From the NCBI GenBank assembly GCA_043805415.1, contig JAZDHZ010000036.1:4194-68193 (forward strand): DNA of 64,000 bases. The letters run 5' to 3'. Shown in pieces: positions 3,040-53,874 of this stretch. Within the stretch, counting starts at the first letter, position 1; the number at the start of each line of letters is the position of its first letter. Under the pieces are notes generated by a model that saw only the letters and a program-made list of their open reading frames with translations, was not told the DNA's origin and searched no databases. The position numbers and the translations under genes are program-made. This stretch comes from Candidatus Omnitrophota bacterium. Lineage in GTDB: Bacteria > Omnitrophota > Gorgyraeia > B26-G9.

Positions 3040-3468
3040 TTAGTTCAGCACCCCAGGAGCTGATGTTTCATCTTCCAAAACATCAGTTTCCATTGGTAAT
3101 GGTGCTGCCGGTTTAATAAAAGTGATCACTTTTGCTTTGCGTAATAAAGTCGGTCCTTTTTCTGTTTCCTGAGTTATCTCATCATACTGGATGCTCACAG
3201 TATCACCGACATTAATTTGCTTAATATTTTGTTTGTGGATTATCTGCTCCATCTCGTCTAAAGGCAATAAAATTTCCTCGGCTGTTCCTTTTTCCGCGTC
3301 ACCCTTATACTCCACGGAAATCGAACCATAGCCAATACCGCTGACAATGCCCTGGATTTCCTTACTGGCGATGTCTTTTTTTCCGCCGACAGCTTCGTTC
3401 TCTGCCTGTAAAGGAGAAACACACACACAAACAACTGCTAATAAACCAACTAATAATAAATTTCTCAT
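3040..3468 (-). CDS. Small secreted protein (~142 aa) of unknown function, encoded between the HUH-TM gene and the partial giant gene.
   Basis: The ORF track gives 3040..3594. An internal Met (MRNLLLVGLLAVVCVCVSPLQA) gives a clean signal peptide and is preceded by GGAGAAAAAAA. The earlier in-frame start would encode a non-hydrophobic leader. The stop abuts the giant gene start with a 9-nt gap. Confidence 0.5.
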   Translation of the reverse strand: MRNLLLVGLLAVVCVCVSPLQAENEAVGGKKDIASKEIQGIVSGIGYGSISVEYKGDAEKGTAEEILLPLDEMEQIIHKQNIKQINVGDTVSIQYDEITQETEKGPTLLRKAKVITFIKPAAPLPMETDVLEDETSAPGVLN

Positions 3469-3595
3469 TTTTTTCTCCTGGATTAAATTTTGTATTTTCA
3501 TTTTATTTTCTCCTGTTATTTCGGGCAGGACAAGTCCTGCCCCTACACCCGGCCTCGATATACTATTTTTTATAATTGATCTGGTCTTTTTCACA

Positions 3596-4753
3596 CTATC
3601 TCCTGCGATATTTCAAACTTTTAAACGAAAAATCCTGCGGCTGTTTTCCGTTTAGCTGCAGGCTAAGCATTCCCAGCATCTGGCCATTAACAACTTCCCC
3701 CCGCCATGAAGCGGTTCCCTCTGAAGATGTTTGAATTGTTTCCCAGATAAGTTTATTTCCTTCAATAACACTAGAATAATTAATATTGGGAAATTTAAGC
3801 TGGGAAAGATATCCGGAAATAAATTTTCCCCGGATAAAACTTATAATATCCGCCCGTGCCGGCGAACCGTCAATATTAAACAGTTGAATCTGCCATTCAG
3901 TATTATTAAGATCTTTTAAATCCTGCTCAATTACTGAAACAACTCCAGTATTTTGTTTATTTATATTTTTATTATAATTAAAATATAAATAAACTCCTGA
4001 GGCAGTTAGCGTAACCAGCAATAAAGCAGCTCCCACACTCATAAAATCGTTTTTTACTCCTGATTTTTTTTCTGCTGTTTCCAGCTGATCTATTTTTTTC
4101 CGCTGCATTTCTATCTCGTCTCTAACGCTATTGACAAAATCTCTTGAACCAATTACTCCCTTACGCTGCAGCTTTTTATAATGCTTTTTAAATTCATCAT
4201 CATCCTGCATCCGCTGCATAAACTCGCTGTAATTCTCTCCCACCAATCCATTAATAATGCTTTCTATCTCATTCTTGATATCCAGTCCTCTGTCTGAGGT
4301 TTGAGCATAATCAAGATACAAACCATAACTGCTGTTCTGATCAGTTTGTGCCTGTACTGATAAATTCAACCGCTTAGGATTAAGATGCATATAGGCTGTG
4401 AGATTCAACAGGATTTGCGGATCTTTTTCCACAACCGCTGCCTTGAATCTTTCCCGGAAAAGATGGCCTTTTCGATCATAGCAGCCATTGAAATATTTTG
4501 TATAAGAAGAAGTCAGATCATGCATCAGGGTGGAAACACTTGCTTTTTTATCAACCTCAATTAATAAATGCAAATGATTATACATTAAAGTATAAGCATA
4601 AAGTTTAACTCCGTATTGGTCTTTGTATTTTTTAAGCAATTCAAAATACATCCCGTAATCCCTCGCGTCTTTAAAAATCACCTGGTTTTGCAACCCATTA
4701 CAAGTAATATAATAAACTGAATTTTCAATATACACTCTTGGCAATCTTGGCAT
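3596..4753 (-). CDS. IS200/RAYT-like HUH (Y1) domain protein fused to a linker, a single TM helix and a ~140-aa extracytoplasmic C-terminal domain. The topology resembles a ToxR/CadC-type one-component regulator.
   Basis: The N-terminus YYITCNGLQNQVIF...LYAYTLMYNHLHLLIEV matches the Y1_Tnp/RAYT HUH motif. The catalytic-Tyr region YDRKGHLFRERF matches Y-x2-R-x-G-x-LW-x-R-F. A K/R-rich segment is followed by the TM helix VGAALLLVTLTASGVYLYF and then a C-terminal domain. RBS GGAG precedes the ATG. Confidence 0.8.
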   Translation of the reverse strand: MPRLPRVYIENSVYYITCNGLQNQVIFKDARDYGMYFELLKKYKDQYGVKLYAYTLMYNHLHLLIEVDKKASVSTLMHDLTSSYTKYFNGCYDRKGHLFRERFKAAVVEKDPQILLNLTAYMHLNPKRLNLSVQAQTDQNSSYGLYLDYAQTSDRGLDIKNEIESIINGLVGENYSEFMQRMQDDDEFKKHYKKLQRKGVIGSRDFVNSVRDEIEMQRKKIDQLETAEKKSGVKNDFMSVGAALLLVTLTASGVYLYFNYNKNINKQNTGVVSVIEQDLKDLNNTEWQIQLFNIDGSPARADIISFIRGKFISGYLSQLKFPNINYSSVIEGNKLIWETIQTSSEGTASWRGEVVNGQMLGMLSLQLNGKQPQDFSFKSLKYRRR

Positions 4754-4781
4754 TACTCACTCCGTTTTTATTCCGCTCTTC

Positions 4782-4845
4782 CCTGATTATGCCTGGCACT
4801 TTTTAGGGTTTTACCTGATTATACCTGACACTTTTTAATATTCTC
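4782..4845 (-). repeat. Two tandem copies of a 32-bp element (CCTGATTATRCCTGRCACTTTTTA...) in the promoter region of the HUH-TM gene. On the coding (minus) strand the distal copy has a TATAAT -10 hexamer and the proximal copy has CATAAT.
   Basis: Direct repeat seen at 4782-4813 and 4814-4845. Minus-strand reading gives AAAAAGTGTCAGGTATAATCAGG and AAAAAGTGCCAGGCATAATCAGG immediately upstream of the RBS/ATG at 4753. Confidence 0.5.
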
Positions 4846-4875
4846 AAAAAAAAACCTCAGACAACTCGTCTGAGG
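4846..4875 (-). terminator. Rho-independent terminator: an 8-bp perfect stem (CCTCAGAC/GTCTGAGG, loop GAGTT) followed by a U9 run on the minus strand.
   Basis: The plus strand reads aaaaaaaaaCCTCAGACaactcGTCTGAGG. On the minus strand the hairpin is followed by TTTTTTTTT. It lies downstream of the wecA-small ORF transcription unit. Confidence 0.8.
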
Positions 4876-5114
4876 TAACAGTAACATTATACAGGGCAGC
4901 CTGCCAATCCGCATAAAATCACGGACGCATCAGCTTTGCCACATACCCATAAATACCCAAGGTATGCGATTCCGTAAGATCCAAATAATACAGAATGCCC
5001 TCGCGTTACCACGAGTTTGCCTTTTTCTACTAATATAAGTATACCACGCATTAAAGAATAAGTCAATGCTTTGTAAAAGTTTTTAATAGAACATGCTTTC
5101 AAATATAACTCCTT

Positions 5115-33570: not shown

Positions 33571-33695
33571 ATTTTTGTTTTTCTGCTTTTCCTAATCGCT
33601 AAACGTTTATCCTGAGCAAAGTCGAAGGGCTATTCGCTAATCGCCGCTTTTTTTGTTTTTCCTAACCGCTAAACGCTAATCGCTATCCGCTGCTT
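33571..33695. repeat. Composite intergenic repeat element, copy C. It has two core copies (...TTTTTCTGCTTTTCCTAATCGCTAAACG... and ...TTTTTGTTTTTCCTAACCGCTAAACGCTAATCGCTATCCGCTG) and abuts the giant gene stop.
   Basis: Read directly from the sequence. Matches copies A and B. Confidence 0.8.
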
Positions 33696-36600
33696 TATTT
33701 TACCGCTTTAAATGAATATATTTTACCAGAATCTGGACCAACAAGGACATAAGTCTCTTGCACATCCCAGGTCTCAGTATTATATATCAAATGCAACGCT
33801 GCTCCGCCTTTAATCGCAGCGCCTGTATCATAAGGCCATCCTGGGACAATCTGGCCTGTAGCTACATCAACCGCATAGAATTTACCATTATCCGCGCCAA
33901 AATAAACTATGCCGTTCTCAACCAGCGGCCAGGAATCAATTGGCGAACCAACATCAACTGGAAAATTCGGTTTCATACTGCCATCCGTAATACTGACCGC
34001 GTACAGTTTTCCATCCTGCGATCCAAAAAATACATAACGGGATCCTGTATCAAACCAGGGAGCTGAGTAAACCGCGCCGCCTACAGAGATTGGATTAACT
34101 GTCCAGCCTGTATCAGCACTGTCTGAGCTTAAATTTGAGGTATTAACCGCATAAAATTTCCCATTTGTTGTACCAAATAGCATTAATCGCCTTGAACTGC
34201 CGACACTTGGGTTTTGCAAAGTAATAGTTGGTGCTGTTTTAATTGCCCCTTCTGAGCCAAACCCTGTATCAAATGTGCGTGCGCCTGTTCCATCAACTGC
34301 TTTAAAACCATAAACTTTTCCGTCACTGGCCCCAAAATATATTTCATCATAATCTAAAGTTGGAACATAAATCATGGCTGGGGATGATTCAATAGCACCG
34401 CCGACAGCAGCCGGAGCTCCCCAGGCATCTGTTCCATCGGCAGAATCAATACAATAGATATTATTCGCGGTTGTGCCAAAATATACCCCAGAAACATAGT
34501 CATACAAGACTGTGGTTGTAAGCGACTCACCCATTACTCTATTCCATCTAAGCGTATTATCTGCCCATAATCCATATACTGTCTTGCCTACAGTTCCAAA
34601 ATAAACAATATCTTTTAAATCCGCGCCGTCAATATCAGTTGATGGATATGGCAAGCCTCTAATCTTTCCGGAAGTTGTGAAACTAGTCTCAAGTTCATGT
34701 GTATCGCCATTTAAGATATATAGATTATTATCATCTGATCCAATATATATTTTATTTTCCATTCCCCAATAAGCTATCGGAATACTGCGTATTGGGCCAA
34801 GCACATTCGCCCCTGTAGGATATATCCAATCCGCGTTTAGGGTGCTAATACTCACATTGGCCGATACATTAGCTATTGAACTTACATCTGCTTGAGAGCT
34901 TGAATCCACACCCGATGCATTTCCCGTAAAATTAACTGTTCCGGAAGTTATCCCTGCTTTATATGTCCAAATAAAATTTTGCTGCGTCTGGGGAGCTATA
35001 TTCGCAGTTAATGGTATCGGGCCAGTTAAAAGATTTGCCGCAGCACTAGTCCCCCCAATAGTTATGATAGATGGAGATACTCCCTGTGCTGTAGCACCTC
35101 CTGTGTTTGCAGTATTAGTTACAGTCATTGTCACTGTTATTGTCGCGTTAGTAAGCAAAGACGATGGAGTTGCCGCAATTGAAGATGTCAAAGCTGCTGA
35201 TTCAGTTAAAATTCTGATATCGCTTGATGCTGAAGCAGCAGACGCTGTTTCGGTTGCATTAGCATGCCCGGTAAAGTTAACAATGCCTAATGTGCTTCCG
35301 GCATTATAAGTCCAGCTGAATTGCTGTGTTGCTCCTGATCCAAGAGTTGCAATACTTGCTGGAATCGGCCCTGTGGCATAAAGCGCGTCTGAAGAACTGC
35401 CTCCCACAGCCAAGCTGGATGGCGTAATATTGTTTAATATACTGCCGCCTGTATTTTGCACATTCATCGTTACTGTGATTGTATCAGATGGTTGAACTGA
35501 ACTCGGAGTTGCACTTATTGATGAAGTCATGGCATATGAAGGCGGTGATTGCACAGTTACTGAATCTTGAGCTTGAGTTGCCGTTAAAACAGCATTAGAA
35601 TTCGCATCTATTCCCTGCGCGATTCCTGCTGCAAAATTCGCAACTCCTGCCCCTGATCCATGACCAATAAATATAAATTCTTTTGATCTGCCGCCTTTTA
35701 TTGTTGCTGTTGTAGGACTTGGCCCAGAATCAATAATTGGATTAGCCGAACCAGAGGGAATAAGTACTGGAGCTACATTTAATGCATCCGCTTGCCCTGG
35801 ATTAGAAACTGTTACTTTAATAGTTATATTTTCATTTGTATTTACTGTTGCCGGCGCAGCATAGACATTTAAAGTTAAACTCGCTTTTTGTACAATCGTA
35901 ATATCATTTGAAGAAACTGTGGTTGATTTAATGATTCCATCTGTATCCGTACCCTGGGCATATCCAGCAAAACTAACTGTGCCGGCACTTGCGCCAGCGG
36001 TATATGTCCATTGAAATTGTTTTTGACCTGCTGGATCAATATTTTGCGCGCTGGGATTTGAACTTGTTGTAGCTGTTGCGCCTCCTGTTGAGCTGACAGT
36101 TAATACACTGGGGTCAACATCATTAACTAAGGAACTTCCAGTATTGTTTACTGTCATAGTAACCGTAAACTGTTGATCTGTGCTGACAATATTTTTTGAA
36201 CTTGCAACTGCAGCTGTTAGATTTCCCCTGCCGATTATGTAAGGTCCTGCATGAGTAACTGTACTTGACCAATTACCCACATTATCCACACTGCGAATAT
36301 GCCCATAATAACTTCCCGAGGCCAGATCATTTGCCGTATATGTGCCTTGACCTTGATCAACATTAATATATTGCGGAGGAATGGTTGTGGGACTTGTATT
36401 CACGATAATACTGTACCCGGCAACCCCTGATTGAGTATCCGTAACATCAGACCAGGTAAATTGGATATCATTATTAATTGATGGAACTCCCTGAGTATGG
36501 GATGAGGATGTAAGCGTTGTTACAAAATTAGGAGCAGTACTATCCAGGACTACACTAAAAGGCACATTAGCCGTGTTTCCAGCATTATCATAAACAACTG

Positions 36601-39600
36601 CATTAACATTATTATAATTTGCTCCAGATGAGGATATCTCATATGTATATAAATACTGATAAGCACCTGCATCTTCAGTTGTGTCAACACCTCCAGTACT
36701 TGTTGTTGTCGGAAATAAAGCTTCTTTTAATCCTGATGCTGCATCGCTTGCGCTAACACAAACCCGGAAAGCCGAATAAGCTAATCCGGAATAATAAATC
36801 AGATTACCGCTTACACTTAAGTAATCTCCGCCGGCATATTCAGTTATTTGGTAAATAGACGTTGCTGTGGGCGCTTGAGTATCTATGTAAAAAGGTCCAA
36901 GATGCGCGGCAGTTAAAGCCCAGTTACCTACATTATCTACACTTCTGATATGCACATAATGCGTATTGCCATTTGCTAGAACAGGGCTTGTCGCTGTATT
37001 CTGTGTTTGTTCTATATCTTTTATATTATCCGGAATTGTTGTTGGATTATTATCCCATAGAACAGAATAACCATCCAAGCCGCTGTCCGCGTCAACAGCC
37101 GGAGTCCAGCTTACAGCCACAGTATTATCTTTTGACTGAGGGTCACTCCACATACTAATCGCATTATTATGCGAGTTTGTAGCCAGGCCGGAAATATTGC
37201 CCGGAACCACAGAATCAACAATATAACTTCCCGTTGAATTCAAAACACTGTCTTCAGCTGTTGGTGAAAATTCAAAACTAATCCCATTTACCGGAACACT
37301 TAGGTCTACTGTTGCCCCATTAGTAACAGTCCCGGCTAAATCCACGGTTGCATACAATTCTTCTGTTCCGGCAATTGGAATATTCACATTAAGATCAGCA
37401 AACGTTGCTGTTCCACTTGAAAAAGTTTTTATTCCAATTTGTGAATCAACCCCTAATTCAAACTCACCTGAATTATTACTATCATAATAAAGTTTTACCG
37501 CGCTTATTTGCGCATCGAAAATTGTTCCGCTATTATTAATCGTAAAGCTCTTAACCGTATCTAAAGCCAAGACATTATTATTCGTAAGCGTAAGGTCTAA
37601 GACTAATTTATTACTTTCTCCCTGTTTTATATATCCGCTGCTAAGCGCGTTAGCAGTAATATCTACAGTAAGCGAAGAAGCCTGGACAACAAGCACTCCC
37701 TCTGTATTATCATCGGTTATTAAGCTGTCAGTGACATCAATATTCAGAGTCTGCGCTGTATTGTCTGTCAGATCAAAAGAAGCGACTCCATTGTCCTGCT
37801 GCGCGAATGTATACATTGCCGTATCCACACTTGCTCCGCCTTCTGTAAAATACCCTGCTCCGCTATGCAGCAACCAGCTGATATTATTCACATCCCCATC
37901 AGTATCTAAAATAATTGTTCCGACATAATCTATTTTTATATTGCCATATTGATCTTTTGCTGTTACATTTATCTCTTCTCCCACAGATTGAACCGCGGTT
38001 CCATCATGACTTATTGTAAAATAATTTAAGACATTTGGATTTACGGTTAAGCCCCCTTCTGTATCATCATCAAATTTACCATCACCGCTAACCGAAATAT
38101 TTAAAATTTCCGCGGTGGTATCATTAAGCGAAAGGCTAACTACCCCATTGTCTGCTGGAGCATAAGTATAAGTCGCGGTATCAGCATTTGCTCCGCCATC
38201 AATAAATGTGCCATTGCCAAAAACATTTGCCCAGGTAATTGTTGTCACGGTCCCGGTTGTATCCAAAGTTATAGTTCCGCTATAATCATTTTGGGTATTA
38301 TTATAATAATCCTTTGCGTAAATACTGATGTTTTCCGCGATACCGGCTGTAGCGCTGGAGTCATGAACAATCTTAAAATGATCTAAACCGCTGGGAGAAA
38401 CTACCATATTTCCTTCTGTATCATCATCAAATTTACCTGAACCGGAAATATCTATGTCTACAGATTCAGCAAATGTATCAGTAAACATCAGCACAACCAA
38501 ACCATTATCTCCGGCAACAAAATTATATGTTGCTGTATCAACCGATGCTCCTCCGTCATTTAAAACGCCTAATCCAGAATCCAAAGCCCAGGCAATAGAA
38601 GTCGCAGAGCCATTAGTATCTATGGTTATGGTCCCTATATAGTTAGTTTTAATGTTCGCGTATATATCATATGCTTTTACTGTAATCAATTCTCCAATAC
38701 CAGCATATGCCGCGGCATCATGACTGATGATAAATTTATCTAAAGCTCCAGCACCGACAACCAAAATACCTTCAGTATCATCATCTGCTTTGCCATCACC
38801 GTTTGCCGAGATATTCAAATTTTCTACTGTAGTATCCGTAATACTTAAAATAACTATCCCATTATCCGCTAAACTAAATGTATAATCAGCAGTATCAACC
38901 AATGCTCCATTATCATTAAATACTCCATGCCCGGAAACATTTGACCAGGTGATTGTTGTGGCTGTACCATTTGTATCTACAGTGATTGTTCCGGTATAAT
39001 TTGTAATTGTGTTGGCATAGGCGTCTTTGGCTGTGATTGTTATATTTTCGGCGACTCCGGCCTGGGCGCTGGCATCATGGTTAATCACAAACTTATTCAG
39101 CGTATTAGGAATAACAGATATATTCCCTTCCGTATTATCATCTGTCTTTCCATCCCCTGACACGGAGATATTAAATGATTCGGTTTTAGTATCCGCTATT
39201 CCCAAAGTAACTGTACCATTATCCGCGGCCGCGAATGTATAAGTCGCGGTATCAACTGTCGGCCCGCCATCATTAAATATGCCATTACCCGAAATATTTG
39301 ACCAGGCAATTGTTCCAGCAGTGCCGTTTGTATCTAAAGTTATCGTACCTGTATAATTTGCAACCGGATTATTATTCGCGTCATGGGCAATAATCGTAAT
39401 ATTCTCAACTACTCCGGCTATTGCATTAGCGTCATGGTTTATTGTAAAGTGATTTAATCCCAAAGGATTAAAAATTAAATTCCCTTCGCTATTATCATCG
39501 GTTTTCCCGCTGCCGCTGGCACTGATATTAATTGTCTGTGTCTGGGTATTAGTAATTGTCAGAACAACAATACCATTATCACTGGAGTTAAAAGTGTAGG

Positions 39601-39868
39601 TTGATGTATCAGCATTTGCCCCATTATCATTAAATATCCCGGCTCCTGATTGCAAAGCCCAGGTTATTTCCGTAGCAGTTCCATTTGTATCCAGCGTCAT
39701 GGTTCCGGTATAATTAGTAACTGTTACATCACTCGCGTCTTTAGCGATTACCGTGATCTGCTCCGGCACACCGGCAATCGCATTGCCGTCATGAATGATT
39801 TTAAAATGATGAAATCCCGCGGCAACTACTTCCAAAACCCCCTTCATAATCATCATCTGTTTTTGCAT
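33695..39868 (-). CDS. C-terminal ~2057 aa of the giant adhesin, as currently framed after the homopolymer frameshift. It has ~8 Ig-like 119-aa repeats, FN3-like modules, DUF11-like repeats and a C-terminal PQQ-type beta-propeller.
   Basis: The repeat signature HF.I.HDG.A.AG...YTG.ITLDTNGT...DTATYTF...DNG.V.L...GDGKTDD continues from the upstream ORF. The C-terminal 600 aa contain YFG..DG.LY/FYAV propeller-like repeats. The apparent start MQKQMMIMKGVLEVV lies mid-repeat. Confidence 0.8.
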   Translation of the reverse strand: MQKQMMIMKGVLEVVAAGFHHFKIIHDGNAIAGVPEQITVIAKDASDVTVTNYTGTMTLDTNGTATEITWALQSGAGIFNDNGANADTSTYTFNSSDNGIVVLTITNTQTQTINISASGSGKTDDNSEGNLIFNPLGLNHFTINHDANAIAGVVENITIIAHDANNNPVANYTGTITLDTNGTAGTIAWSNISGNGIFNDGGPTVDTATYTFAAADNGTVTLGIADTKTESFNISVSGDGKTDDNTEGNISVIPNTLNKFVINHDASAQAGVAENITITAKDAYANTITNYTGTITVDTNGTATTITWSNVSGHGVFNDNGALVDTADYTFSLADNGIVILSITDTTVENLNISANGDGKADDDTEGILVVGAGALDKFIISHDAAAYAGIGELITVKAYDIYANIKTNYIGTITIDTNGSATSIAWALDSGLGVLNDGGASVDTATYNFVAGDNGLVVLMFTDTFAESVDIDISGSGKFDDDTEGNMVVSPSGLDHFKIVHDSSATAGIAENISIYAKDYYNNTQNDYSGTITLDTTGTVTTITWANVFGNGTFIDGGANADTATYTYAPADNGVVSLSLNDTTAEILNISVSGDGKFDDDTEGGLTVNPNVLNYFTISHDGTAVQSVGEEINVTAKDQYGNIKIDYVGTIILDTDGDVNNISWLLHSGAGYFTEGGASVDTAMYTFAQQDNGVASFDLTDNTAQTLNIDVTDSLITDDNTEGVLVVQASSLTVDITANALSSGYIKQGESNKLVLDLTLTNNNVLALDTVKSFTINNSGTIFDAQISAVKLYYDSNNSGEFELGVDSQIGIKTFSSGTATFADLNVNIPIAGTEELYATVDLAGTVTNGATVDLSVPVNGISFEFSPTAEDSVLNSTGSYIVDSVVPGNISGLATNSHNNAISMWSDPQSKDNTVAVSWTPAVDADSGLDGYSVLWDNNPTTIPDNIKDIEQTQNTATSPVLANGNTHYVHIRSVDNVGNWALTAAHLGPFYIDTQAPTATSIYQITEYAGGDYLSVSGNLIYYSGLAYSAFRVCVSASDAASGLKEALFPTTTSTGGVDTTEDAGAYQYLYTYEISSSGANYNNVNAVVYDNAGNTANVPFSVVLDSTAPNFVTTLTSSSHTQGVPSINNDIQFTWSDVTDTQSGVAGYSIIVNTSPTTIPPQYINVDQGQGTYTANDLASGSYYGHIRSVDNVGNWSSTVTHAGPYIIGRGNLTAAVASSKNIVSTDQQFTVTMTVNNTGSSLVNDVDPSVLTVSSTGGATATTSSNPSAQNIDPAGQKQFQWTYTAGASAGTVSFAGYAQGTDTDGIIKSTTVSSNDITIVQKASLTLNVYAAPATVNTNENITIKVTVSNPGQADALNVAPVLIPSGSANPIIDSGPSPTTATIKGGRSKEFIFIGHGSGAGVANFAAGIAQGIDANSNAVLTATQAQDSVTVQSPPSYAMTSSISATPSSVQPSDTITVTMNVQNTGGSILNNITPSSLAVGGSSSDALYATGPIPASIATLGSGATQQFSWTYNAGSTLGIVNFTGHANATETASAASASSDIRILTESAALTSSIAATPSSLLTNATITVTMTVTNTANTGGATAQGVSPSIITIGGTSAAANLLTGPIPLTANIAPQTQQNFIWTYKAGITSGTVNFTGNASGVDSSSQADVSSIANVSANVSISTLNADWIYPTGANVLGPIRSIPIAYWGMENKIYIGSDDNNLYILNGDTHELETSFTTSGKIRGLPYPSTDIDGADLKDIVYFGTVGKTVYGLWADNTLRWNRVMGESLTTTVLYDYVSGVYFGTTANNIYCIDSADGTDAWGAPAAVGGAIESSPAMIYVPTLDYDEIYFGASDGKVYGFKAVDGTGARTFDTGFGSEGAIKTAPTITLQNPSVGSSRRLMLFGTTNGKFYAVNTSNLSSDSADTGWTVNPISVGGAVYSAPWFDTGSRYVFFGSQDGKLYAVSITDGSMKPNFPVDVGSPIDSWPLVENGIVYFGADNGKFYAVDVATGQIVPGWPYDTGAAIKGGAALHLIYNTETWDVQETYVLVGPDSGKIYSFKAVK

Positions 39869-42800
39869 CTCCGCTGACTGCGATATTGATAATCTCTGAA
39901 ACCGTATCAGTCAGCAATAAAGTAACCTGCCCATTATCTGCGCCCGCAAATGTATAAGTCGCGGTATCCACACTTGCCCCGCCATCATTAAACACTCCAT
40001 TTCCCGTGCTAAGCGCCCAGTTTATGGCATTAGCGGTGCCGTCAGTATCAACAGTTATCAAACCAGTATAATCAGTTTTAATATTATTATAAGCATCATA
40101 AGCTTTAATAATAATCGACTCCGGTTGATTCTGTAAAGCAAACCCATCATGGACAATAGAAAAATGGTCGATAATTCCTGGTCCTACATTAAGCATTCCT
40201 TCGGTATCATCATCTGTTTTGCCTGACCCGGATACGGAAATATTTAATTGCTCAAGAGTTGTATCTTGCAAAGATAATACAACCACTCCATCATCCGCTA
40301 AACTATAAACATAAGTAGCTGTATCTACTGATAAACCGCCATCAACAAAAGTACCATTGCCGCTGATTTTTGCCCAGGTTATGGTTGAAACTGTTCCATT
40401 GGTATCCAAAGTAATTTGTTCAGTATAATTTTTTTTCGTATTTCCATACTGATCCTTGGCAGTTATTGTAATTGTATCCAGTATTCCTGCTTGAGCAGCA
40501 CCGTCATGGGCTAGCAAAAAGTGATCCAGCACTGCGGCAGAAACAACAAGATTCCCTTCAGTATTATCATCCGACTTACTATCACCGGTTACCGCGATAT
40601 TCAGACTCTCCGCTGTAGTTGAGGTCAAGGCAAACGTGGCTGTTGAATTATCTGAAGCATTAAACGTATAAGTAGCTGTATCTACTCCCTGTCCACCATC
40701 AGTAAAAATTCCAAAACCGGTTAACAATTGCCAGCTTATTCCAGCGGCAGTGCCATTTGTATCTAAATTAATTTGTCCTGTATAATTAGACACTGTATTA
40801 TTAAAAGCATCCTTTGCTGTTACAGTTACATTTTCGGCAATACCGGCAATAGCCGCGGCATCATGGGTGATCAGAAAATGATCAATCCCTCCGGAAGCAA
40901 TAACTAAATTACCCTCAGTATTATCATCGGTTTTAGCATCGCCGCTGGCAGATATATTGATTGACTCTGCTTTATTGTCAACCAGACTAAATACCGCGGT
41001 TCCATTATCCGAAGCTGAAAAAGCATAAGTAGCAGTATCCACAGATGCTCCGCCCTCTGTAAATATTCCATTGCCTGTTACCTTTGCCCAGGTTATTGCC
41101 GTAGCTGTTCCGGTTGTATCCAAGGTAATTGTTCCGCTATAAGAAGTTTTAATATTTCCATAAATATCCCGGGCTGTCAGAGTAATCTGTTCCGGGATAC
41201 CGGTTATTGCTGATTGGTCATGCTGGATTACAAAATGATCTAGGGCCAAAGATACCGGGATGATCCCCGCTGAATTCAGCACTGTATCTTCTATCTGAAC
41301 GCCATAAACAAAACTTATCCCATTAACCGGAATCTGGATATCCAGCGTATCAGCATCATTAACAGTTTGCGCCAGAGCGCAAACTACAAAAATATCTTCA
41401 GAACCGCTAGCCGGAACACTAATATTTAAACCTGTAAATGTTTTAGTGCCAGAGTTAAACACTCCGGAACCAACCTGATTATCAACACCCGTTGTATAAT
41501 CATTAGAATTATTGCTGTCATAATATAATTTTAATGAAGAGATTTCCGTATCTGATAGCGTTCCGGTATTATTAATCACCAGGGAATTTATTACTCTTGC
41601 CTGGCTGGCAGTATTAGTTACCGTAACATCAAGACTTAAAACATTACTGGCCCCGGCAGCTATCGGAGTTGTGCTAACCGCATTAGCAATCGCGTCCGGA
41701 GGAAGTTCATAATAAATCCGCGCTGGTATCCAATCCAAATATAAATAAATAGTTGTGCTGGGAGTGCTGGCATTAATTCTCACCCGGAAATTAGCATTTG
41801 TAAAATTATCAACTGTCCAGGTTCTGCCCCAAACATCAGTTGGCCCGCCCAGAACATATGTTACTTCTGATGTAATCATATCCGGCGTAATTTTTCCTGT
41901 TGTAGTAAAGCTGGTTCCGCCATCCCAGGAAAGTTCAACCAAACCTTGGGTCAAGCCAGTAGTACTGGACGCATAGGCATCAAGCTGAACCGCAATACCC
42001 AAAATCGTTGACCCAGCCGGAATATTAACCCCATAATTATAGTACTGCTGTGATTGTCCATTGTATGAAGTAGCACGCGAAGCATCATTCGCGTAAGCAT
42101 TTGCAGGGCTGGTAAAATTACCGCTATTAGCTGTTGGCGACAAATACCCGGTATTCAATCCGCCTACTGGATTTATAACTAAATTACTTTCAGTATTATC
42201 ATCACTCTTGCCATCACCGCTAACTAAGATATTTATTGTTTCAGCCGTGCTATCATTTAAGGAAAGCACAACCATTCCATCATCAGCATCACTAAATGTG
42301 TACAAAGCTGTATCAAGTGATGCCCCTCCATCCTGGAACACTCCCACACCAGCGGTTAATGTCCAATCAATCGCTGTCGGCGTTCCATTGGTATCAAGAG
42401 TTATCTGTCCGGTATAATTATCCTTAATATTTTCCCAAACATCTTTAGCATAAATCGTAATTGATTCTCCCAGATTAACAACCGCTGAACCGTCATGGAA
42501 AATTGTAAAATGGTCAATTAGTGACGGTCCGATAATTATATCTCCTTCGGCATTAGTATCATTTTTTCCATCCCCGAAAACCGCGAGATTAATTACTTCT
42601 TTTTTCGTATCAGTAATTGCTAAAACCACAATCCCATCATCAGAGTCAGCATAGGTATATGTCGCTGTATCAACCAAAGCGCCTCCGTCGGCTAATGTAC
42701 CATTGCCAGTTATTTTTGACCAGGTAATTGTTGTCGCTGTTCCATTTGTATCCAAGGTTATTGTCCCGGTATAATTATCTTTGATATTTGAATACAAATC

Positions 42801-45800
42801 ATATGCTCTTACTGTGACATTTTCCGCTACCCCGGCTTCGGCATTTCCATCATGAATAATTACAAAATGATCAATACTGGTCGGGCCGACAATTAAATTA
42901 CCTTCTGAATCATTGTCAGTTTTCCCTCCGCCAAAAACATCAATATCAATATTTTCCTTTTTTGTATCACTAACGCTTAAAACCACAATCCCATCATCAG
43001 AGTCAGCATAAGTATATGTCGCTGTGTCAACCAAAGCTCCGTTATCAGTAAACACCCCATTGCCGGTAATTTTAAGCCAGGTAATCGTTGTCGCTGTTCC
43101 ATTTGTATCCAAGGTTATTGTCCCGGTATAATTATCTTTGATATTTAAATATGAATCATAGGCTTTTATCGTAACAGTCTCCGCTACTCCGGCCTCGGCA
43201 TTACCATCATGATTAACTACAAAATGGTCGATACTGGTCGGCCCAACAATTAAATTACCTTCTGAATCATTGTCAGTTTTCCCGTCCCCGGTTACGGAAA
43301 TATTTAGACTTTCCGCGGTTGTGTCAGTTATCTTTAGTATACATTGACCATTATCTGCCGCTAAGAATGTATACGTAGCTGTATCAACTGATGCTCCGCC
43401 GTCAACAAAAGTTCCCAAGCCAGTAGCTTTAGCCCAGGTTATTGTTCCGGCTGTGCCATTAGTATCCATACTGATCTGCCCGGTATAATTTGTCTTAATA
43501 TTGCCATAGGAGTCATAAGCAACTATTGTTATATTATCCGCAATACCGGCAACCGCGCTTCCATCGTGATTAATGGAAAAATAATCAATCGCTCCTGGCC
43601 CGACGGTTAAGGTTCCTTCTTTATCATCATCAGATTTTCCCGCTCCGCTTACTGATATATTTAAGCTTTCGACTATTGTATCAGTTATACTCAGCACGCA
43701 GGTTCCATTATCACTAGCTACATATGAATATGTTGCTGTATCAGCCAAAGCTCCGCCATCACTAAAACTGCCGTTTCCGGTAATTTTCGCCCAGCTAATA
43801 GTTGTCGCAGTGCCGGTTGTATCCAAATCAATCTGTCCGGTATATGCGGTTAATGTATTATTATTCGCGTCTTTTGCCGCGATTGTTACTGTATCAGCGA
43901 TTCCCGCGACAGCATTACCATCATGCGTAATTGTAAAATGATGCAGGCCCGCGGGATTGAACACAAGATTTCCTTCTGTATTATTGTCAGACTTGCCTTC
44001 TCCGGAAACTGAGATATTTACTGATTCTTCGGAAGAATCAGTAATTGTTAAAACCACTACCCCTAAATCTGAATCATCATACATATAAGAACAGGTATCT
44101 GCATCCGCGCCAGAATCATTAAAAGTTCCATTCCCGGATTGTAATGCCCAGGCAATAGTCCCAGAGGTTCCGGTTGTATCAATGGTTATCTGTCCGCCAT
44201 AACTTGTTAAAGTATCCCCATTAGCATTTTTCGCGTAAATTGAAATACTTTCCCCAATACCGGCAATCGCGTTACCGTCATGGACAATCAGAAAATGGTC
44301 AATCCCGGAAGAAACAAATACTAAATCACCCTCGTTATTACTATCATTCTTCCCGTCACCGGACACAGAGATATTTACAGATTCAGCAGTATAATCAATT
44401 ATACTTAAAATCACGATTCCGGCATCAGCAGGCACAAAAGTATAAGTTGCTGTATCTGCTGAAGAACCCGCATCATTAAAAACTCCTTCTCCGCTGATAA
44501 GTGTCCAGCTGATTGTAGTCACAGTTCCTGTGGTATCAAGAGTAGTCACTCCAGTATAATCATCTTTGATGTTTTCATAAGCGTCATAGGCAGTTATCAT
44601 AACTTGTTCTGATACATCTGTTGTGGCAATCCCATCATGATTAATCACAAAATGATCAATATCTCCAGAAGTAATAACTAAATTTCCTTCTGTATTATCA
44701 TCAGTCACACTACCGGCACTAACCGATATATTAATTGTCTCTGTTTTTGTATCAGTAAGGTTAAACACTGCTGTTCCATTATCCAAAGCATTAAAAGTAT
44801 AAGTTGCCGTGTCTAAGGATGCTCCGTTGTCAGTAAAAATACCATTTCCAGTATTCAGCGCCCAGGTTATTTTGGTCGCTGTCCCGGTTGTATCTAAATT
44901 TATTGTACCAGTATAATTATTTTTTATATTGCCAAACCCATCCAAAGCTGTTATTGAAATAGCTTCGGCATTTCCAGCAATAGCCTGCCCCTCATGACTA
45001 ATCACAAAATGATTAAGTTCTCCAGGAGCAATTATCAGATCCCCTTCACTATCATCATCGTATTTTCCATCTCCGACAGCGATAATATTTAATGTCTCTG
45101 CCTTATTGTCAACAATCTCAAACCTGGCTAAGCCAGTATCACTGGGGTCAAAAGTATAGATTGCTGTACCCGCGCCAGCTCCATTGTTAAAAAACACACC
45201 TGATCCTGAGTCTAGAGTCCAGTTAATATCATCCACAGAACCGTTTGTTCCCAATGTTATCTGTCCGGAGTAATTATTAACTGTATTGCCAAAACTATCT
45301 TTTACCGTAACTGAAATTATTTCTCCCGCACCAGCTATTCCTGAGCCATCATGACTAACTATAAAATGATTCACAAGCCCGGCGGAAACCGTAAGATCAG
45401 TCTCAGTATTATCATCACTTTTACCATCACCGCTTGCTGAAATATTTATTATCTCAGCGATTTCATCACTAATGTTTAATACTACCACACCCGCATCAGA
45501 CTGAGTAAATGTATATATTGCTGTATCTAAACTTACGCCGCCATCATTAAAAACCCCGCTCCCAGCATATTTTGACCAGGTAATTGATTCAGGAGTTCCA
45601 TTAGTATCAACAGTTATTGTTCCAGTATAATCGGTTTTTGTATTGCCATAAGCGTCTTTAGCAATAATCGTAATGTTTTCATCTAAGCCGGCAATTGCCG
45701 CCCCATCATGGCTAATCAAAAAATGATCTAATCCAATATATGTCTGGCGTGTACCGCTGGAGTTTAATACAGCGCTGCCGAGTTTTTTGCCATTAGAAAA

Positions 45801-48800
45801 ACCAATCCCTGAGATCGGAATTGCCACATCAAGCAGTTTTCCTGACGCGCAGGCTGAAGACAAATCAATAACCGCGAATAAATATTGGGTTGCTCCAGCA
45901 GGAATATCAATATTAAAACCTGAAAAAATTTTACTTCCTGAGGAAAAACCGCTATTGCCTACCTGGGTATCTACTTCCGGGGTGTAATCCAAAGAATTAT
46001 TTGAATCATAATACAATTTTACTGCTGAAATCTCGCTATCACTGACTGTTCCTACATTATTTAAGGTAACACTGTTTATCGTTAGCGTGCTCCCTTCATT
46101 ATTCGTAACTGAAACATCAAGAATTAAATTGCCTGTTTGGCCTACTGGGATAGTATCAGTTATTACTGGATTTGCTGTTGCTGTTGCCGCTAAGCCTACG
46201 CTAATAAAAGTCGTTGGTGAATTCTGATTATTATATTCTGTGGCAATCCATTCCGGAGAACGCGCGGTAATTGCGTAGCGTACCTCATCCAACTTTCCAA
46301 GCCAGTATTCCGTGCTATAATTTGACCAGCCAATCAAAGCTGATGTTGCTGTAGGAAATGTTGCGCTATGCGTCCCGGTTCCATGCAGAGCTCCGTCAAC
46401 ATAAAAATAAACCATTGTCCCGACTCTGCGGAAATCAACCTTATGCCATTGACCATCATTATGCGTAGCTGTTCCGCTGGAAGTAATCAATCCATTATGA
46501 TAAACCATGGCCACGCTTTGATTATAAAAACCAAATTGCGGCGCGTAATTATTATGGTCATAAATCGTTGAATATGATGCCGGAGAAGAAATATAATTAA
46601 ACCACGCGGAAATAGTATAATCCCCGGGAGTGCCCACTCCCACCGGACTGGTCTTCTTAAAGTAATCATTACTGCCGTCAAAATCTATTCCTTTGCCGAT
46701 TTTAGCGTCAATCAAATCCGTATTAGTCATGGTTCCGTAAGAAGTCATCGCGTTATTATTGGAAGTTGAATCTTTTTCCTGCGGAGCGGTTGCTGAAGGA
46801 TCATTATTTAAATGCCAGACGCCTTTATATGATGTATCCCATACTCCGCTTTTATTCTGCTGATCACTGGCAGCGCTATTTCCATAATACATATAAATCT
46901 TTGTATCTGCTGATGATAAAAGACTGGGAATTTTTACCCAGGCCACAAGGATTCCGGTTGTTTTATCAAAGCTTTCTATTTCATGATCTAATTTTGTATT
47001 TCCGTCACTGGCAGTAAAAACAATATCAAAACCATCGCTGCGGGCATTATCCCGCAATGCTGTATCTGTAATACTTATCAGTACTGGAAAATTAGTCAGA
47101 TTAGCCATGACTTTTGTCCGGTCAATTGTGATCTCTTTATGAAAAGACCAATTTGCTAGTAAAAACTGAGTGATCACTAAATTGCCTTCAGTATTATCAT
47201 CAGTCATGCCGCCGCCGCTTACCGAAATATTTATTGTCTCCGCGGTTGTGTCGGTCAAATCAAGAGTTACCACTCCGAAATCCGCGGAACCATATGTATA
47301 AGTCGCGGTATCAACACTGGCTCCGCCGTCAACAAAAGCTCCTGCGCCTTGATATTTTGACCAGGTAATTGTTGTCGCGGTTCCGGTTGTGTCAACGATT
47401 ATCGACCCGGTATAATCTGTCTTAATATTATTAAAACCATCATACGCGGCTATCGTAATATGCTCCGGCTGTCCGGTAAAAGCATTATTATCATGAGAAA
47501 TAATAAACTTAGTTAATGCCCCGGGAAGCACCTGCAATAATCCTTCACTATTATCATCAGAAGCACTGCCGGACACAGCAATATTTATTGTCTCAGTAAA
47601 AGTATCAGCCATTGCCAAAACAACAACTCCATTATCCGCAGCGCTAAATGTATAGGAACAGGTATCTGCTGATGATCCGTCATCTACAAATGTTCCGCTT
47701 CCGCTAATTTTCGTCCAATTGATTGTACTAGCTGTTCCATCAGTATCAATATATATGGTTCCAGTATAATCAGTTTTGGTCTGGCCTAATGTATCTTTAG
47801 CCGTAATTGTAATATTTTCATTTGTTCCGGCAATAGCCTGACCGTCATGCGCGATCAGGAAATGATGCAGCAATGCTGTATCAATATTCAGCAGGCCCTC
47901 GCTATCATCATCAGTTTTTCCGCTGCCGCTAATATCAATATCAATATTTTCCACCACATTATCCGTTATTGCCAGGGTTACTACCCCATTATCTAAAGCG
48001 GAAAATGTATATACAGCTGTATCCACAGCTGTACCGCCGTCATTAAATGTCCCATTACCGCTTATCTTAGCCCAGCTGATTGCCGCGGGAGTTCCGCTGG
48101 TATCGATTGTTATGGTTCCAGTATAATCTGTCTTTATCTGACCAATACTGTTTAATGCCGTAATCGTAACAGTTTCCGCTACCCCGGCATTACCCGCTCC
48201 ATCATGTACTACCCGAAAAGACCAAATAATCGCAGGCCCAACCACTAAATTTCCCTCAGCATTATTATCAATTTTTCCATCGCCGGAAACTGAAATATTA
48301 ATTGATTCCGCTGTAATATCAGTTATCGCGAAAACCGCGATGCCATTATCTGCTGAATCAAAAGCATATGTCGCGGTATCGACACTTTCTCCATTATCAT
48401 TAAATATGCCATTGCCTGTTGTTTTTGCCCAGCTGATTGCTGATGCCGTGCCATCTGTATCTAAAGTAATTGTTCCGCTATAATCACTTTTTGTATTGCC
48501 ATAGATGTCTTTTGCTGTCACTGTTACTTGCTCGGAAACTCCGGATGATGCCGCATTATCATGGCTTATCAGAAAATAATCAATTGCCGCGGCACTGACC
48601 ACCATTGTCCCTTCAGCATCAGTATCAGTTTTTCCCTCAGCACTGGCATCAATATCAATTGTTTCTTTTTTTGTATCCGTAATACTCAAAACAACAGCAC
48701 CCGCGTCAGAAAGCACAAAACCATATGTCGCGGTATCAACCGAACTGTCTCCGTCAGTAAGCACGCCATTTCCGCTTATTTTCGCCCAGCTGATTGTTGT

Positions 48801-52640: not shown

Positions 52641-52702
52641 TTTACCCTTCCCCACCAACATATTTAAATACTATTTATAATTGATATAAAACACTAAACT
52701 AA

Positions 52703-52722
52703 TCAAGCAATTAATGTGCCAA
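52703..52722 (-). promoter_or_regulatory. Sigma-54 (-24/-12) promoter for the giant gene: TTGGCAC-ATTAA-TTGCT on the minus strand.
   Basis: Reverse complement of 52705-52724 reads TATTGGCACATTAATTGCTT. It has the GG-N10-GC spacing and a near-consensus TGGCAC/TTGC. It lies ~65-80 nt upstream of the MRNYFF start codon (52638-52640). An NtrC-type activator is encoded 1.2 kb upstream. Confidence 0.6.
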
Positions 52723-52883: not shown

Positions 52884-52914
52884 CTAACATTTCAAGCAAT
52901 GCTCATTATGTTAT
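52884..52914. promoter_or_regulatory. 29-bp imperfect palindrome TAACATTTCAAGCAATGCTCATTATGTTA (left copy). It overlaps the 3' end of the HUH-HTH gene, ~180-210 nt upstream of the giant-gene sigma-54 -24 element.
   Basis: Outer TAACAT/ATGTTA and inner AGCAATGCT dyad symmetry. A 28/31 match to the copy at 53844-53874. Confidence 0.5.
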
Positions 52915-53801
52915 ATTTGGTTATTATGGCTGGTAGCAGGATTACTGATTAGCTTGCGGGAAATAAGCTGTCGGCTTTTGTGTAACATTTTGGCGATTTC
53001 TGAAATTGTACAGCCGTTAGAAAGTAGCTGCTCCCCTAGATATTTTATAGCCGCTACATCTTCCGGTTGGGTAAAGTGCTTGATTTTTTTAGTTCTTTCT
53101 ATTTCATCACATAGCTTCAAGGTATCTTCATCTACGTTATCTACCTTATTTTTTGACTTCATGTAATATGCAAATTCCAGCCTAAACTTATTTAAGGCAT
53201 TTAAATCCTGAGAGATAGTATTTAGTTGTACATTTATAGCATCGTTTATTAAATTAATATATATTTCTTTTGATTTCTCAGTATTGGCGTTTAACATATT
53301 TAAGATAAAATCGCAATCAACAAAACTTTGCCTGCTAATTCTGTCTACAAATAAATTTAAAGAACTCCACCTGTATTTACCTAATTCCTTTATTAACCTT
53401 GCTTTAAGCGGATTCAAATGAATATACAAAGATATAGCAAGCAAATATTTCTCTTTTAAACATAAACACGCCCTAAAAGGCTTACAAAAAACCGGACCTT
53501 TTCTTGAGTATTTCGCATTAAGATATTTAGCGTATTTTTCAAATAAATATTTTGCTCCCAACGAAAGATTTTCATCTTCTATTTGAACCAATAAATGCAA
53601 ATGATTAGGCATCAAGCAAAATGAGAATATCTTCCAGTTAAATTTCTGCGGAATACTTTTTAACAATGAAAGCATGTAAAGATAATCGCTATCTTCTAGG
53701 AATAGCACCTCTTTCCCCGGCGCCCGGTGAGTAATATGATAAATAGCATTAGGATAGATTATTCTGTCCCTGGACAGCGGAACCCCTTCTATCTTTCTCA
53801 T
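52911..53801 (-). CDS. IS200/RAYT-like HUH (Y1) domain protein with a C-terminal DnaA-domain-IV-like HTH. Possibly a domesticated regulator or a small IS200-like element.
   Basis: YHITHRAPGKEVLF...FCLMPNHLHLLVQIE for the HUH motif, and KYSRKGPVFCKPFRA for the Tyr motif. The C-terminus CTISEIAKMLHKSRQLISRKL is HTH-like. Confidence 0.78.
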   Translation of the reverse strand: MRKIEGVPLSRDRIIYPNAIYHITHRAPGKEVLFLEDSDYLYMLSLLKSIPQKFNWKIFSFCLMPNHLHLLVQIEDENLSLGAKYLFEKYAKYLNAKYSRKGPVFCKPFRACLCLKEKYLLAISLYIHLNPLKARLIKELGKYRWSSLNLFVDRISRQSFVDCDFILNMLNANTEKSKEIYINLINDAINVQLNTISQDLNALNKFRLEFAYYMKSKNKVDNVDEDTLKLCDEIERTKKIKHFTQPEDVAAIKYLGEQLLSNGCTISEIAKMLHKSRQLISRKLISNPATSHNNQI

Positions 53802-53824
53802 TCATCCTCCTTTCTCTCGATATA

Positions 53825-53874
53825 ATTTTAAACTAGATTTCGTAACATTTCAAGCATTGCTCGTTTTGTTACTT
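53825..53874 (-). promoter_or_regulatory. Right copy of the 29-bp palindrome (TAACATTTCAAGCATTGCTCGTTTTGTTA), overlapping a sigma-70-like promoter (-35 TTGAAA, 17-bp spacer, -10 TAAAAT) for the HUH-HTH gene.
   Basis: On the minus strand: ...GAGCAATGCTTGAAATGTTACGAAATCTAGTTTAAAAT... followed by RBS AAAGGAGGA and the ATG. Confidence 0.45.

Follow-up and report, generated by a model that had tools for sequence, protein, structure and literature searches.

HUH-domain transmembrane proteins at the head of giant surface-protein operons in Omnitrophota, behind a c-di-GMP-I-type riboswitch and a conserved pair of boxes

Domesticated Y1 HUH proteins such as RAYTs and TIRYTs are widespread, and their cellular roles are largely obscure. 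Here we describe a gene with a Y1 HUH domain in a 64,000-nucleotide stretch from Candidatus Omnitrophota bacterium (contig JAZDHZ010000036.1; hereafter the window, meaning the whole stretch). Its product, which we call HUH-TM, joins the HUH domain to a transmembrane (TM) helix and a predicted extracytoplasmic beta-barrel. In the closest described systems, REPtrons and TIRtrons, doublets of a short repeat flank the genes of RAYTs and TIRYTs (PMC3733652, PMC6006769), and in REPtrons the flanking repeat is the DNA bound and cut by the encoded enzyme (PMC8266576). The HUH-TM gene is found in an operon with the order promoter, c-di-GMP-I-type riboswitch with terminator (c-di-GMP, cyclic dimeric guanosine monophosphate), two AAAGTGCCAGGCA boxes, HUH-TM, a small partner with an OB fold, and a giant surface protein. 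Because two copies of its presumed ancestral recognition repeat still precede it, HUH-TM is well placed to be a membrane-bound regulator or tether of a new kind that binds DNA.

The regulation and export of Omnitrophota giant genes are open questions (10.1101/2023.11.21.568195). Two preprints treat these genes, one of them being the work just cited, and describe secretion loci, a PPIase and PilZ genes, the last located downstream of the giant genes (10.1101/2023.11.21.568195). Neither preprint contains the riboswitch or the HUH-TM gene, and the 2026 preprint names other IS-family transposases and integrases in the flanks only. Our literature searches for a transposase or riboswitch ahead of the giant genes of this phylum returned nothing, nor did the literature that was searchable contain an account of an HUH protein anchored in the membrane.

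The HUH-TM protein and its operon

The N-terminal region of the window protein matches the Pfam family Y1_Tnp (aa 30-112, E=1.7e-12), and only this family in the Pfam and NCBIfam scans, with no winged helix of the OmpR type; the Pfam scan gives no match to a helix-turn-helix (HTH) either. The curated NCBIfam models score below their cut-offs: REP_Tyr_transpos (NF047646) reaches 54.1 bits over aa 4-132 (cut-off 80) and transpos_IS200 (NF033573) 21.5 bits (cut-off 55). A profile of 38 homologues finds Escherichia coli TnpA-REP (PDB 4er8, E=0.0011). The corresponding alignment identifies H60-L-H62 as the HUH motif, Y121 (in LTAYMHLNP) as the equivalent of the catalytic Y115, and N125 as the asparagine four residues past the catalytic tyrosine, so that the window protein retains the complete catalytic set. 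The Y115F mutant of TnpA-REP is catalytically dead (PMC8266576). A first-pass annotation of the window had recognized the HUH motif correctly in NHLHLL, but took the tyrosine of Y-DRKGHLFRERF for the catalytic one; the block YTKYFNxxYxRKGHLFRER is conserved, non-catalytic and separate from the Y121 motif. The linker that follows the domain carries a conserved motif, HKKLQRxGxxGSxxF, common to soluble HUH homologues.

The same annotation proposed a single TM helix and a C-terminal domain predicted to be outside the membrane. The order of HUH domain, helix and C-terminal domain is borne out by the Y1_Tnp match, hydrophobicity and a structure model, and the outside location is likewise predicted here. 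The sole hydrophobic segment of the protein has a Kyte-Doolittle value of 1.8, and residues 273-385 are modelled as a barrel of eight strands (predicted local distance difference test score, 93.4). No Pfam family or name was found for the barrel. An exhaustive profile search of the representative library (E up to 0.001) places it in a family of 1268 clusters, consisting mostly of standalone proteins of 180-250 aa. Standalone paralogues possess signal peptides and are encoded within secretin/ExeA-like/TPR/PPIase clusters upstream of giant genes (L034 6979-7602, L083 7017-7649 and many others). Because of this setting, the barrel is best regarded, from sequence, as a periplasmic module of the machinery around the giant proteins. 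The secreted paralogues, together with the lack of an N-terminal signal sequence in HUH-TM homologues, support a predicted N-in/C-out topology. What appeared at the loci to be short HUH paralogues are standalone barrel proteins as well: they match the barrel only and lack the HUH domain.

We found 228 database homologues of HUH-TM, over 100 of them full length, with 39-100% identity; in all, the full-length homologues number more than 170. Nearly all come from metagenome-assembled genomes of Omnitrophota, and they are labelled 'transposase' or 'RayT' in the databases. The same annotation allowed that the open reading frame (ORF) might be a fusion artefact or that the TM segment might lack conservation. 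The homologues rule this out: a TM-grade segment is located at residue 241 +/- 13 in 152 homologues of at least 360 aa, and the full-length architecture recurs in over 150 independent assemblies (NCBI, JGI, ENA, Logan). A sister family of 304-342 aa combines an HUH-like domain and a TM helix with a C-terminal coiled coil (EKYRADMVSYQAMQKRLEIEK). Its genes lie near giant genes (L064-L070, L074-L076, L080), their HUH motif is often destroyed (QVN, AVY, FIH, IIY), and palindromic boxes are found close to some of the loci.

The HUH domain is the best-conserved portion of the HUH-TM protein. In 177 non-redundant family members Y84, N89 and R102 are invariant, and K86, Y92, G96 and H97 have 1-4 exceptions each, while the HUH histidines and the catalytic tyrosine are not invariant. 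All catalytic residues are present in 123 of 159 barrel-type proteins (about 78%); among these 159, 15 have histidine in place of the tyrosine with an intact HUH motif, and ~20 have a broken HUH motif, so that HUH and/or the tyrosine is missing in 35 of 159. Among species-representative barrel-type genes the loss is more frequent, affecting 20 of 41. Replacements include QLN, QLD, RLE and SVN for HUH and H, F, I or L for the tyrosine. The partner and the giant gene are kept in lineages with replaced catalytic residues, and 17 of the 20 loci with catalytic loss still have at least one box, 10 of them at least two. The boxes thus outlast the catalytic residues, which have disappeared from 22-50% of lineages, and because of this pattern, binding is more likely than cleavage to be the conserved activity of HUH-TM, as far as sequence comparison can indicate.

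The genomic setting was studied in 80 loci from species-representative genomes, plus look-ups; 61 loci are of the barrel type. The gene order is fixed—HUH-TM, then the partner, then the giant ORF. The partner directly follows HUH-TM in 47 of 56 barrel-type loci, and an ORF of at least 1000 aa begins within 3.5 kb in 40 of 41. Both downstream genes of the window had been read in the first pass as a small signal-peptide protein and a giant surface protein, and both readings hold; the giant protein displays an N-terminal signal peptide and Ig-like Kre9_KNH repeats, with no stop over 1009 codons. Upstream of HUH-TM, two types of neighbourhood occur: a radical-SAM/GT4/WbqC/ExeA-like/PIG-L/MraY-like cluster, as in the window, and a secretin/ExeA-like/TPR/PPIase cluster. 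The gene is present in one or two copies per genome, in a syntenic slot. Since the neighbourhood is fixed, copies are few and dispersed repeats are lacking, HUH-TM is, judging from sequence, a vertically inherited and domesticated host gene. The earlier suggestion that the HUH fold is domesticated agrees with its phylum-wide conservation and lack of mobility.

Two side observations concern the neighbours. A membrane protein of 63 aa with two helices is encoded between the MraY-like glycosyltransferase gene and the riboswitch, a position that it also occupies, conserved, in 10 or more other loci. Many partners (loci L002, L012, L014, L017-L031 and others) end in a conserved motif, (S/P)L(S/P)LKG(V/L)K, after a variable acidic or proline-rich tail; the window partner is without it. 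The motif may be a docking or sorting peptide.

The leader: riboswitch, terminator and paired boxes

Thanks to its orthologues, the c-di-GMP-I-type riboswitch with its terminator is the only regulator of the locus to which a confident identification can be given, and it was absent from the first-pass annotation. The window aptamer itself scores 20.5 bits against RF03167 (cut-off 59), and none of the models reaches its gathering threshold there. Orthologous aptamers are strong matches: of 18 short loci, 12 reach 53-66 bits with RF01051 (cut-off 35), L045 scores 60.9 bits against RF03167, and L004 (60.1 bits), L006 (58) and L008 (40) are also above threshold. Altogether, 16 other loci score 40-66 bits with RF01051 or 60-61 bits with RF03167. 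The riboswitch is located 130-150 nt 5' of the start codon in orthologous loci, a hairpin with a T-run directly follows the aptamer in 53 of 57 of them, and promoters equivalent to that of the window (TTGACA/TGnTATACT) precede it.

The window leader keeps the aptamer blocks GGCAAAC...GCAAAGC...GGCAGGCUGCC. Its weak score is explained by an insertion of 58 nt (4941-4998, minus strand), which interrupts the junction, splitting the aptamer at GACGCAAAG. The insertion folds into two hairpins (-14.9 kcal/mol), is common to L003 and L005, and is absent in L004 and L006; it may represent either a tolerated expansion or a decaying aptamer. At the GACGCAAAG junction, about half of the recognizable aptamers have G for the canonical A (18 GAC-GCAAAG vs 22 GGC-GCAAAG), which fits the Rfam GGC variant, and L004 and L045 score best with the c-di-GMP-I-GGC model. 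Ligand specificity may accordingly differ between lineages, to judge by these sequences.

GTTTGCC, comprising the loop and 3' arm of the terminator, is complementary to the GGCAAAC block of the aptamer. As an antiterminator, the GGCAAAC:GUUUGCC pairing is a poor guide to the ON/OFF logic of the riboswitch: it is present in just 14 of 44 leaders and is never stabler than aptamer plus terminator. The arms of the terminator are CCCAGGCA...TGCCTGGG in several clades and contain the heptamer CCAGGCA, as do the boxes; up to four direct or inverted copies of the heptamer occur per leader. A 71-aa ORF (4887..5102, minus strand) overlaps promoter, aptamer and terminator and is almost certainly no gene.

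In nearly all loci, the stretch that separates the terminator from the ATG contains two direct copies of AAA-GTGCCAGGCA-(C/T)AA. In the window they belong to a repeat (4768-4831) composed of two 32-nt direct copies. Even between loci with protein identities of only 30-45%, where the sequence around the boxes has diverged, the core GTGCCAGGCA hardly varies; over 108 instances, ten core positions are 87-100% conserved and the flanks are free. The core is itself palindromic (GTGCC-A-GGCAC). The window holds just two boxes of the 12-mer, which is statistically unremarkable within the window alone, and their significance rests on conservation across species. In 1.19 Mb of loci the 12-mer with at most one mismatch has 137 matches, nearly all just 5' of HUH-TM, where chance predicts about 5 by our own arithmetic. 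Neither a 3' repeat nor dispersed boxes are found in the 64-kb window or in the 1.19 Mb of orthologous loci.

The boxes maintain a strict geometry. In every locus, box 1 begins 13-14 nt past the T-run; from the end of box 2 to the ATG, the distance is often 12-15 nt in orthologous loci. Start-to-start spacings fall into classes of 20-23 bp (9 loci), 30-33 (29), 42-43 (3), 53 (3) and 63 (1), with a period of ~10.5 bp (Rayleigh R 0.87, n=46; for unique values R 0.71, p about 0.001). Such helical phasing is what two proteins on one face of B-DNA would produce and would not be expected of an RNA element. Two promoter readings of the boxes were considered. A second sigma70 promoter across box 1 is possible but not adopted, the -35-like hexamer being not universal and the CAYAAN element lacking a conserved final T. 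A sigma54 promoter (TGGCAC on the opposite strand) is rejected, since it has no TTGC at the required distance in leaders inspected by eye, and its orientation is wrong.

The paired box is also present outside Omnitrophota. Among 131 pairs on metagenome contigs, only 26 are followed by an HUH-family gene, which is of the HUH-TM type in 25 cases. The remaining pairs are mostly tandem or dispersed arrays of AAAGTGCC(A/T)GGCACTTT on unrelated, often high-GC contigs. The idea that the box pair is exclusive to HUH-TM is therefore rejected, most metagenome pairs lying elsewhere, and this led to an interpretation in terms of REP/TIR repeats. The palindrome flanking HUH genes is AAAGTGCCWGGCACTTT. In L136, L156, L182 and L191, and less clearly in L173, doublets of the palindrome flank a soluble HUH gene on both sides, with the 3' copies inverted. 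The encoded proteins have 213-317 aa, some with a DnaA_C-like HTH. Because the same palindrome flanks soluble HUH genes in the manner of REPtrons and TIRtrons, this clade of HUH proteins most likely has the boxes as its cognate DNA. In the Omnitrophota boxes the left arm and core of the palindrome are kept and the outer right arm is lost, leaving a 4-bp stem; HUH-TM would then have retained only the 5' doublet, in trimmed form.

The arrays deserve mention in their own right. Their periods are 11, 19-25 and 34-50 bp, on contigs with a GC content of 0.36 to 0.74 (loci L084-L203, e.g. L134 with 25 core copies in 9.9 kb, L113, L098 and L100). Some palindrome copies adjoin GGGGACAG-type motifs, which resemble the published TIRYT consensus GGGGWSAS. 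The palindrome looks like an undescribed, very widely shared family of REP/TIR-type repeats.

The window contains a second giant-gene locus (Table 1), where a soluble HUH-family gene is located immediately upstream of a very large gene pair. Its product matches Y1_Tnp (1.7e-8), has the HUH motif and the tyrosine, and includes a weak C-terminal HTH. The gene is flanked by a 29-nt repeat, 90% identical and partly palindromic with the core AGCAWTGCT, resembling a TIRtron. Since this gene adjoins the large pair, an HUH-family gene stands ahead of both giant-gene loci of the window. The larger gene has a perfect promoter of the sigma54 type (TGGCAC-N5-TTGCT) upstream, and next to it are genes for a HAMP histidine kinase and for a sigma54 activator/response regulator of the NtrC type. 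The second giant gene thus seems, on sequence, to be under two-component/sigma54 rather than riboswitch control.

Table 1. Positions of the HUH-TM operon, its leader and the second giant-gene locus in the window
Feature	Positions	Strand	Basis or remark
Giant secreted protein gene, 5' part, 1009 codons	1..3028	minus	runs off window, no stop
Small secreted partner, 153 aa as annotated	3040..3501	minus	signal-peptide Met at 3468; ~90-aa OB-fold core
HUH-TM ORF, 385 aa	3596..4753	minus	ORF list; first gene of operon
Predicted extracytoplasmic 8-stranded meander beta-barrel, aa 273-385	3599..3937	minus	structure model
Single TM helix, aa ~237-259	3977..4045	minus	hydrophobicity and homologues
Linker, aa 146-236, K/R/E-rich ahead of membrane	4046..4318	minus	homologue comparison
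HUH (Y1) domain, aa 1-145, predicted cytoplasmic; H60/H62, Y121, N125	4319..4753	minus	Pfam/NCBIfam and alignment
Box 2, AAGTGCCAGGCA, exact	4790..4801	minus	32 bp past box 1, 46 nt before ATG
Box 1, AAGTGTCAGGTA	4822..4833	minus	2-mismatch copy of AAGTGCCAGGCA
Intrinsic terminator, 10-bp stem, 9 T; riboswitch expression platform	4845..4876	minus	hairpin and T-run
c-di-GMP-I (GEMM-I)-type riboswitch aptamer	4891..5030	minus	weak window match; strong in orthologues
Sigma70-like promoter, TTGACT-17-TATACT with TG; would drive leader RNA	5038..5066	minus	consensus match only
Two-helix membrane protein, 63 aa	5115-5306	minus	
Second giant-gene locus, 2057-aa gene	33695-39868		
Second giant-gene locus, 4286-aa gene	39801-52661		
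Sigma54-type promoter	~52706-52722	minus	upstream of 4286-aa gene
Second, soluble HUH-family gene, 296 aa	52911-53801	minus	within region 52885-53871
NtrC-type sigma54 activator/response regulator and HAMP histidine kinase	53883-55262, 55272-57227		

Proposed binding at the membrane and its alternatives

The reading that we prefer, with confidence that is evenly balanced, is that HUH-TM has a ToxR-like layout made of non-homologous parts and that its HUH domain binds the two boxes of its own leader at the membrane. Recognition of the upstream repeats by the N-terminal domain has real comparative support, from the analogy with repeat-flanked HUH genes. In evolutionary terms, a domesticated protein of the RAYT/TIRYT type would have lost its C-terminal HTH and gained a membrane anchor and a periplasmic barrel, and the two boxes would be what is left of the ancestral REP/TIR flank, namely its 5' half. 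The cytoplasmic HUH domain, bound to both boxes, would hold the start of the giant-gene operon at the membrane, with box occupancy set by the periplasmic barrel and the OB partner. The bound domain might act on RNA polymerase as a roadblock or modulator just past the riboswitch terminator. Stalling or release of polymerase there is possible because box 1 is located about one downstream footprint of RNA polymerase past the U-tract. Alternatively, bound HUH-TM might be a tether coupling transcription to export, docking the locus at the export site.

Several points weigh against box binding at the membrane. Most family members, including the window protein, keep the full HUH/Tyr/Asn set, which is unexpected if only binding counts. 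The bias of lysine and arginine across the TM helix is weak (3.45 vs 2.86), and the barrel is a generic fold from which no ligand or signal can be proposed. An RNA-level role of the boxes is possible, because they lie in the transcribed leader and box 2 is near the ATG. In many loci box 1 is found between a -35-like TTGAnn and a weak -10-like CAYAAN, and could be part of a promoter. Since most box pairs occur away from HUH genes, they could be read by some other factor of wide conservation. Finally, the box-flanked soluble HUH proteins may not be the closest kin of HUH-TM, and the case for box binding is a comparative one.

A more elaborate version, which we offer as doubtful, has the HUH domain at the inner membrane reading REP-like boxes one polymerase footprint past the c-di-GMP riboswitch terminator, where it would gate read-through into the giant gene and dock the locus at the secretion site. 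In this version the boxes may be recognized on duplex DNA or on the exposed non-template strand, by analogy with RfaH at ops sites. If true, RNA-based second-messenger sensing, envelope sensing through barrel and OB partner, and co-transcriptional export of the giant protein would be integrated at one leader, by a new class of membrane-bound regulator or tether derived from a domesticated transposase and its own repeat.

Among the rival explanations, the one that survives best, although we consider it unlikely, is that HUH-TM serves chiefly as an envelope or secretion accessory of the giant protein, with the barrel and OB partner as the working parts. These would act as chaperone, adaptor or sensor for a type II/IV-like secretion apparatus; the boxes would be read by RNA polymerase, another regulator or the mRNA itself, or be relics, and the HUH domain would be vestigial or otherwise employed. 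The large barrel family, with standalone members in secretion-type clusters beside giant genes, is consistent with this view, as are the co-encoded partner, the many metagenome box pairs without an HUH gene and the decay of catalytic residues in many lineages. A vestigial HUH domain, however, would not be expected to be the best-conserved part of the protein, and the seven invariant or near-invariant non-catalytic residues in 177 sequences argue that it is not vestigial. The boxes, moreover, track HUH-TM with fixed geometry, and the same box flanks soluble HUH homologues.

It is improbable that HUH-TM has remained enzymatically active, as a site-specific nickase or strand-transferase that is tethered to the membrane and cuts at the boxes in the manner of a relaxase. 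Such an activity could relieve the supercoiling from membrane-coupled transcription of the giant gene, or serve other DNA processing. It would account for the retention of HUH, Tyr and Asn in the window protein and about 78% of barrel-type members, and the ancestral box is a hairpin-forming palindrome of the kind cleaved by Y1 enzymes. The Omnitrophota leaders, however, have just the 4-bp stem left, 22-50% of lineages have other residues at the catalytic positions although boxes, partner and giant gene are retained, and neither dispersed copies nor rearrangements occur in the window and the loci.

An active IS200/IS605-like or RAYT-type mobile element with an odd C-terminus would explain the database labels, the Y1_Tnp match and the 5' flanking repeats, but we regard it as highly implausible: one or two copies occupy the same slot between a glycosylation or secretion cluster and the giant gene while the proteins diverge to ~30% identity, no 3' repeat or dispersed boxes occur in the window or loci, and the scores are below the curated cut-offs for the IS200 and RAYT equivalogs. 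That a transposase gene was joined to the gene of a membrane protein by a frameshift or in assembly, an idea suggested by the unusual architecture and nothing else, is refuted by the recurrence of the same full-length architecture across assemblies.

The riboswitch and the box pair are two unreported control elements for the giant genes of Omnitrophota. The HUH-TM lineage has a cellular address (the membrane), a fixed job as first gene of the giant-protein operon throughout the phylum, and one box pair, which makes the question of its role directly testable. If it does bind the boxes, a transposase fold and its repeat would have been co-opted together as a membrane-tethered cis-regulatory system.

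Comparison with described systems

Sequence features suggest that HUH-TM descends from the RAYT/TIRYT radiation of Y1 HUH proteins. It falls outside each named family because it has neither curated scores above cut-off nor a two-sided flank, dispersed repeats or a C-terminal HTH. With the RAYT TnpA-REP (E. coli YafM, 4er8) it shares the Y1 HUH fold, the Tyr-x3-Asn-Pro motif and a WQxRF-type strand. Like RAYTs and REPtrons, it is a low-copy, domesticated gene that adjoins a short palindromic repeat, and in the wider clade repeat doublets flank the gene and form dispersed arrays. HUH-TM differs from RAYTs in having no GTAG-type REP, in its score (54 vs 80 bits), in a C-terminal extension of 240 aa that comprises the TM helix and the periplasmic barrel, and in catalytic residues that are dispensable in many lineages. 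In Omnitrophota only the direct 5' doublet is present, without dispersed copies; the full REPtron layout is found solely around soluble relatives elsewhere. The resemblance to IS200/IS605 TnpA is limited to the HUH motif and the catalytic tyrosine on the next helix. HUH-TM has Y-x3-N-P, of the RAYT type, where IS200 has Y-x3-Q, and it occurs in one or two syntenic copies without a 3' repeat, unlike the multi-copy insertion sequences with subterminal hairpins at both ends.

TIRYTs and TIRtrons (TnpA-Y1 subclass 2.1; PMC3733652, PMC6006769) are similar to HUH-TM in their long protein and GSxEF linker motif, and are flanked by clade-specific inverted repeats instead of classical REPs. A serine motif after the catalytic tyrosine is also shared: YPYSSY follows AYIHLNP in the HUH-TM family, with QNSSYG in the window and WSS in relatives. 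The C-terminal HTH typical of TIRYTs is present in the soluble relatives L081, L082 and L156 and in the second HUH gene of the window. In HUH-TM, by contrast, the HTH/DnaA_C-like C-terminus (Bac_DnaA_C/HTH_23/HTH_28) is replaced by the TM helix and barrel, the gene has a fixed place in a riboswitch-led operon, and the repeat is one-sided and in direct orientation.

The first-pass annotation likened the protein and its neighbour to ToxR/ToxS. The likeness in architecture stands; homology does not. In ToxR/ToxS, TcpP/TcpH and CadC, a cytoplasmic domain that binds nucleic acids forms the N-terminus and is followed by one TM helix and a domain in the periplasm; HUH-TM resembles them only in this layout, which in its case is predicted. 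As with ToxR/ToxS, a small periplasmic partner is encoded next, and direct-repeat boxes are found near surface or virulence-type genes. There is no homology of sequence or fold: the N-terminal domain is an HUH domain and not an OmpR-type winged helix, its predicted periplasmic part folds as an 8-stranded barrel, and an OB fold makes up the partner. The boxes, too, are located in the transcribed leader past the terminator rather than upstream of the -35 element. The leader finds its counterpart in the adhesin and surface-protein operons with c-di-GMP-I (GEMM-I) riboswitches (RF01051/RF03167), where an aptamer and terminator likewise precede a huge surface-protein operon; here, however, two protein-type boxes come at a constant distance after the riboswitch, and then the HUH-TM gene.

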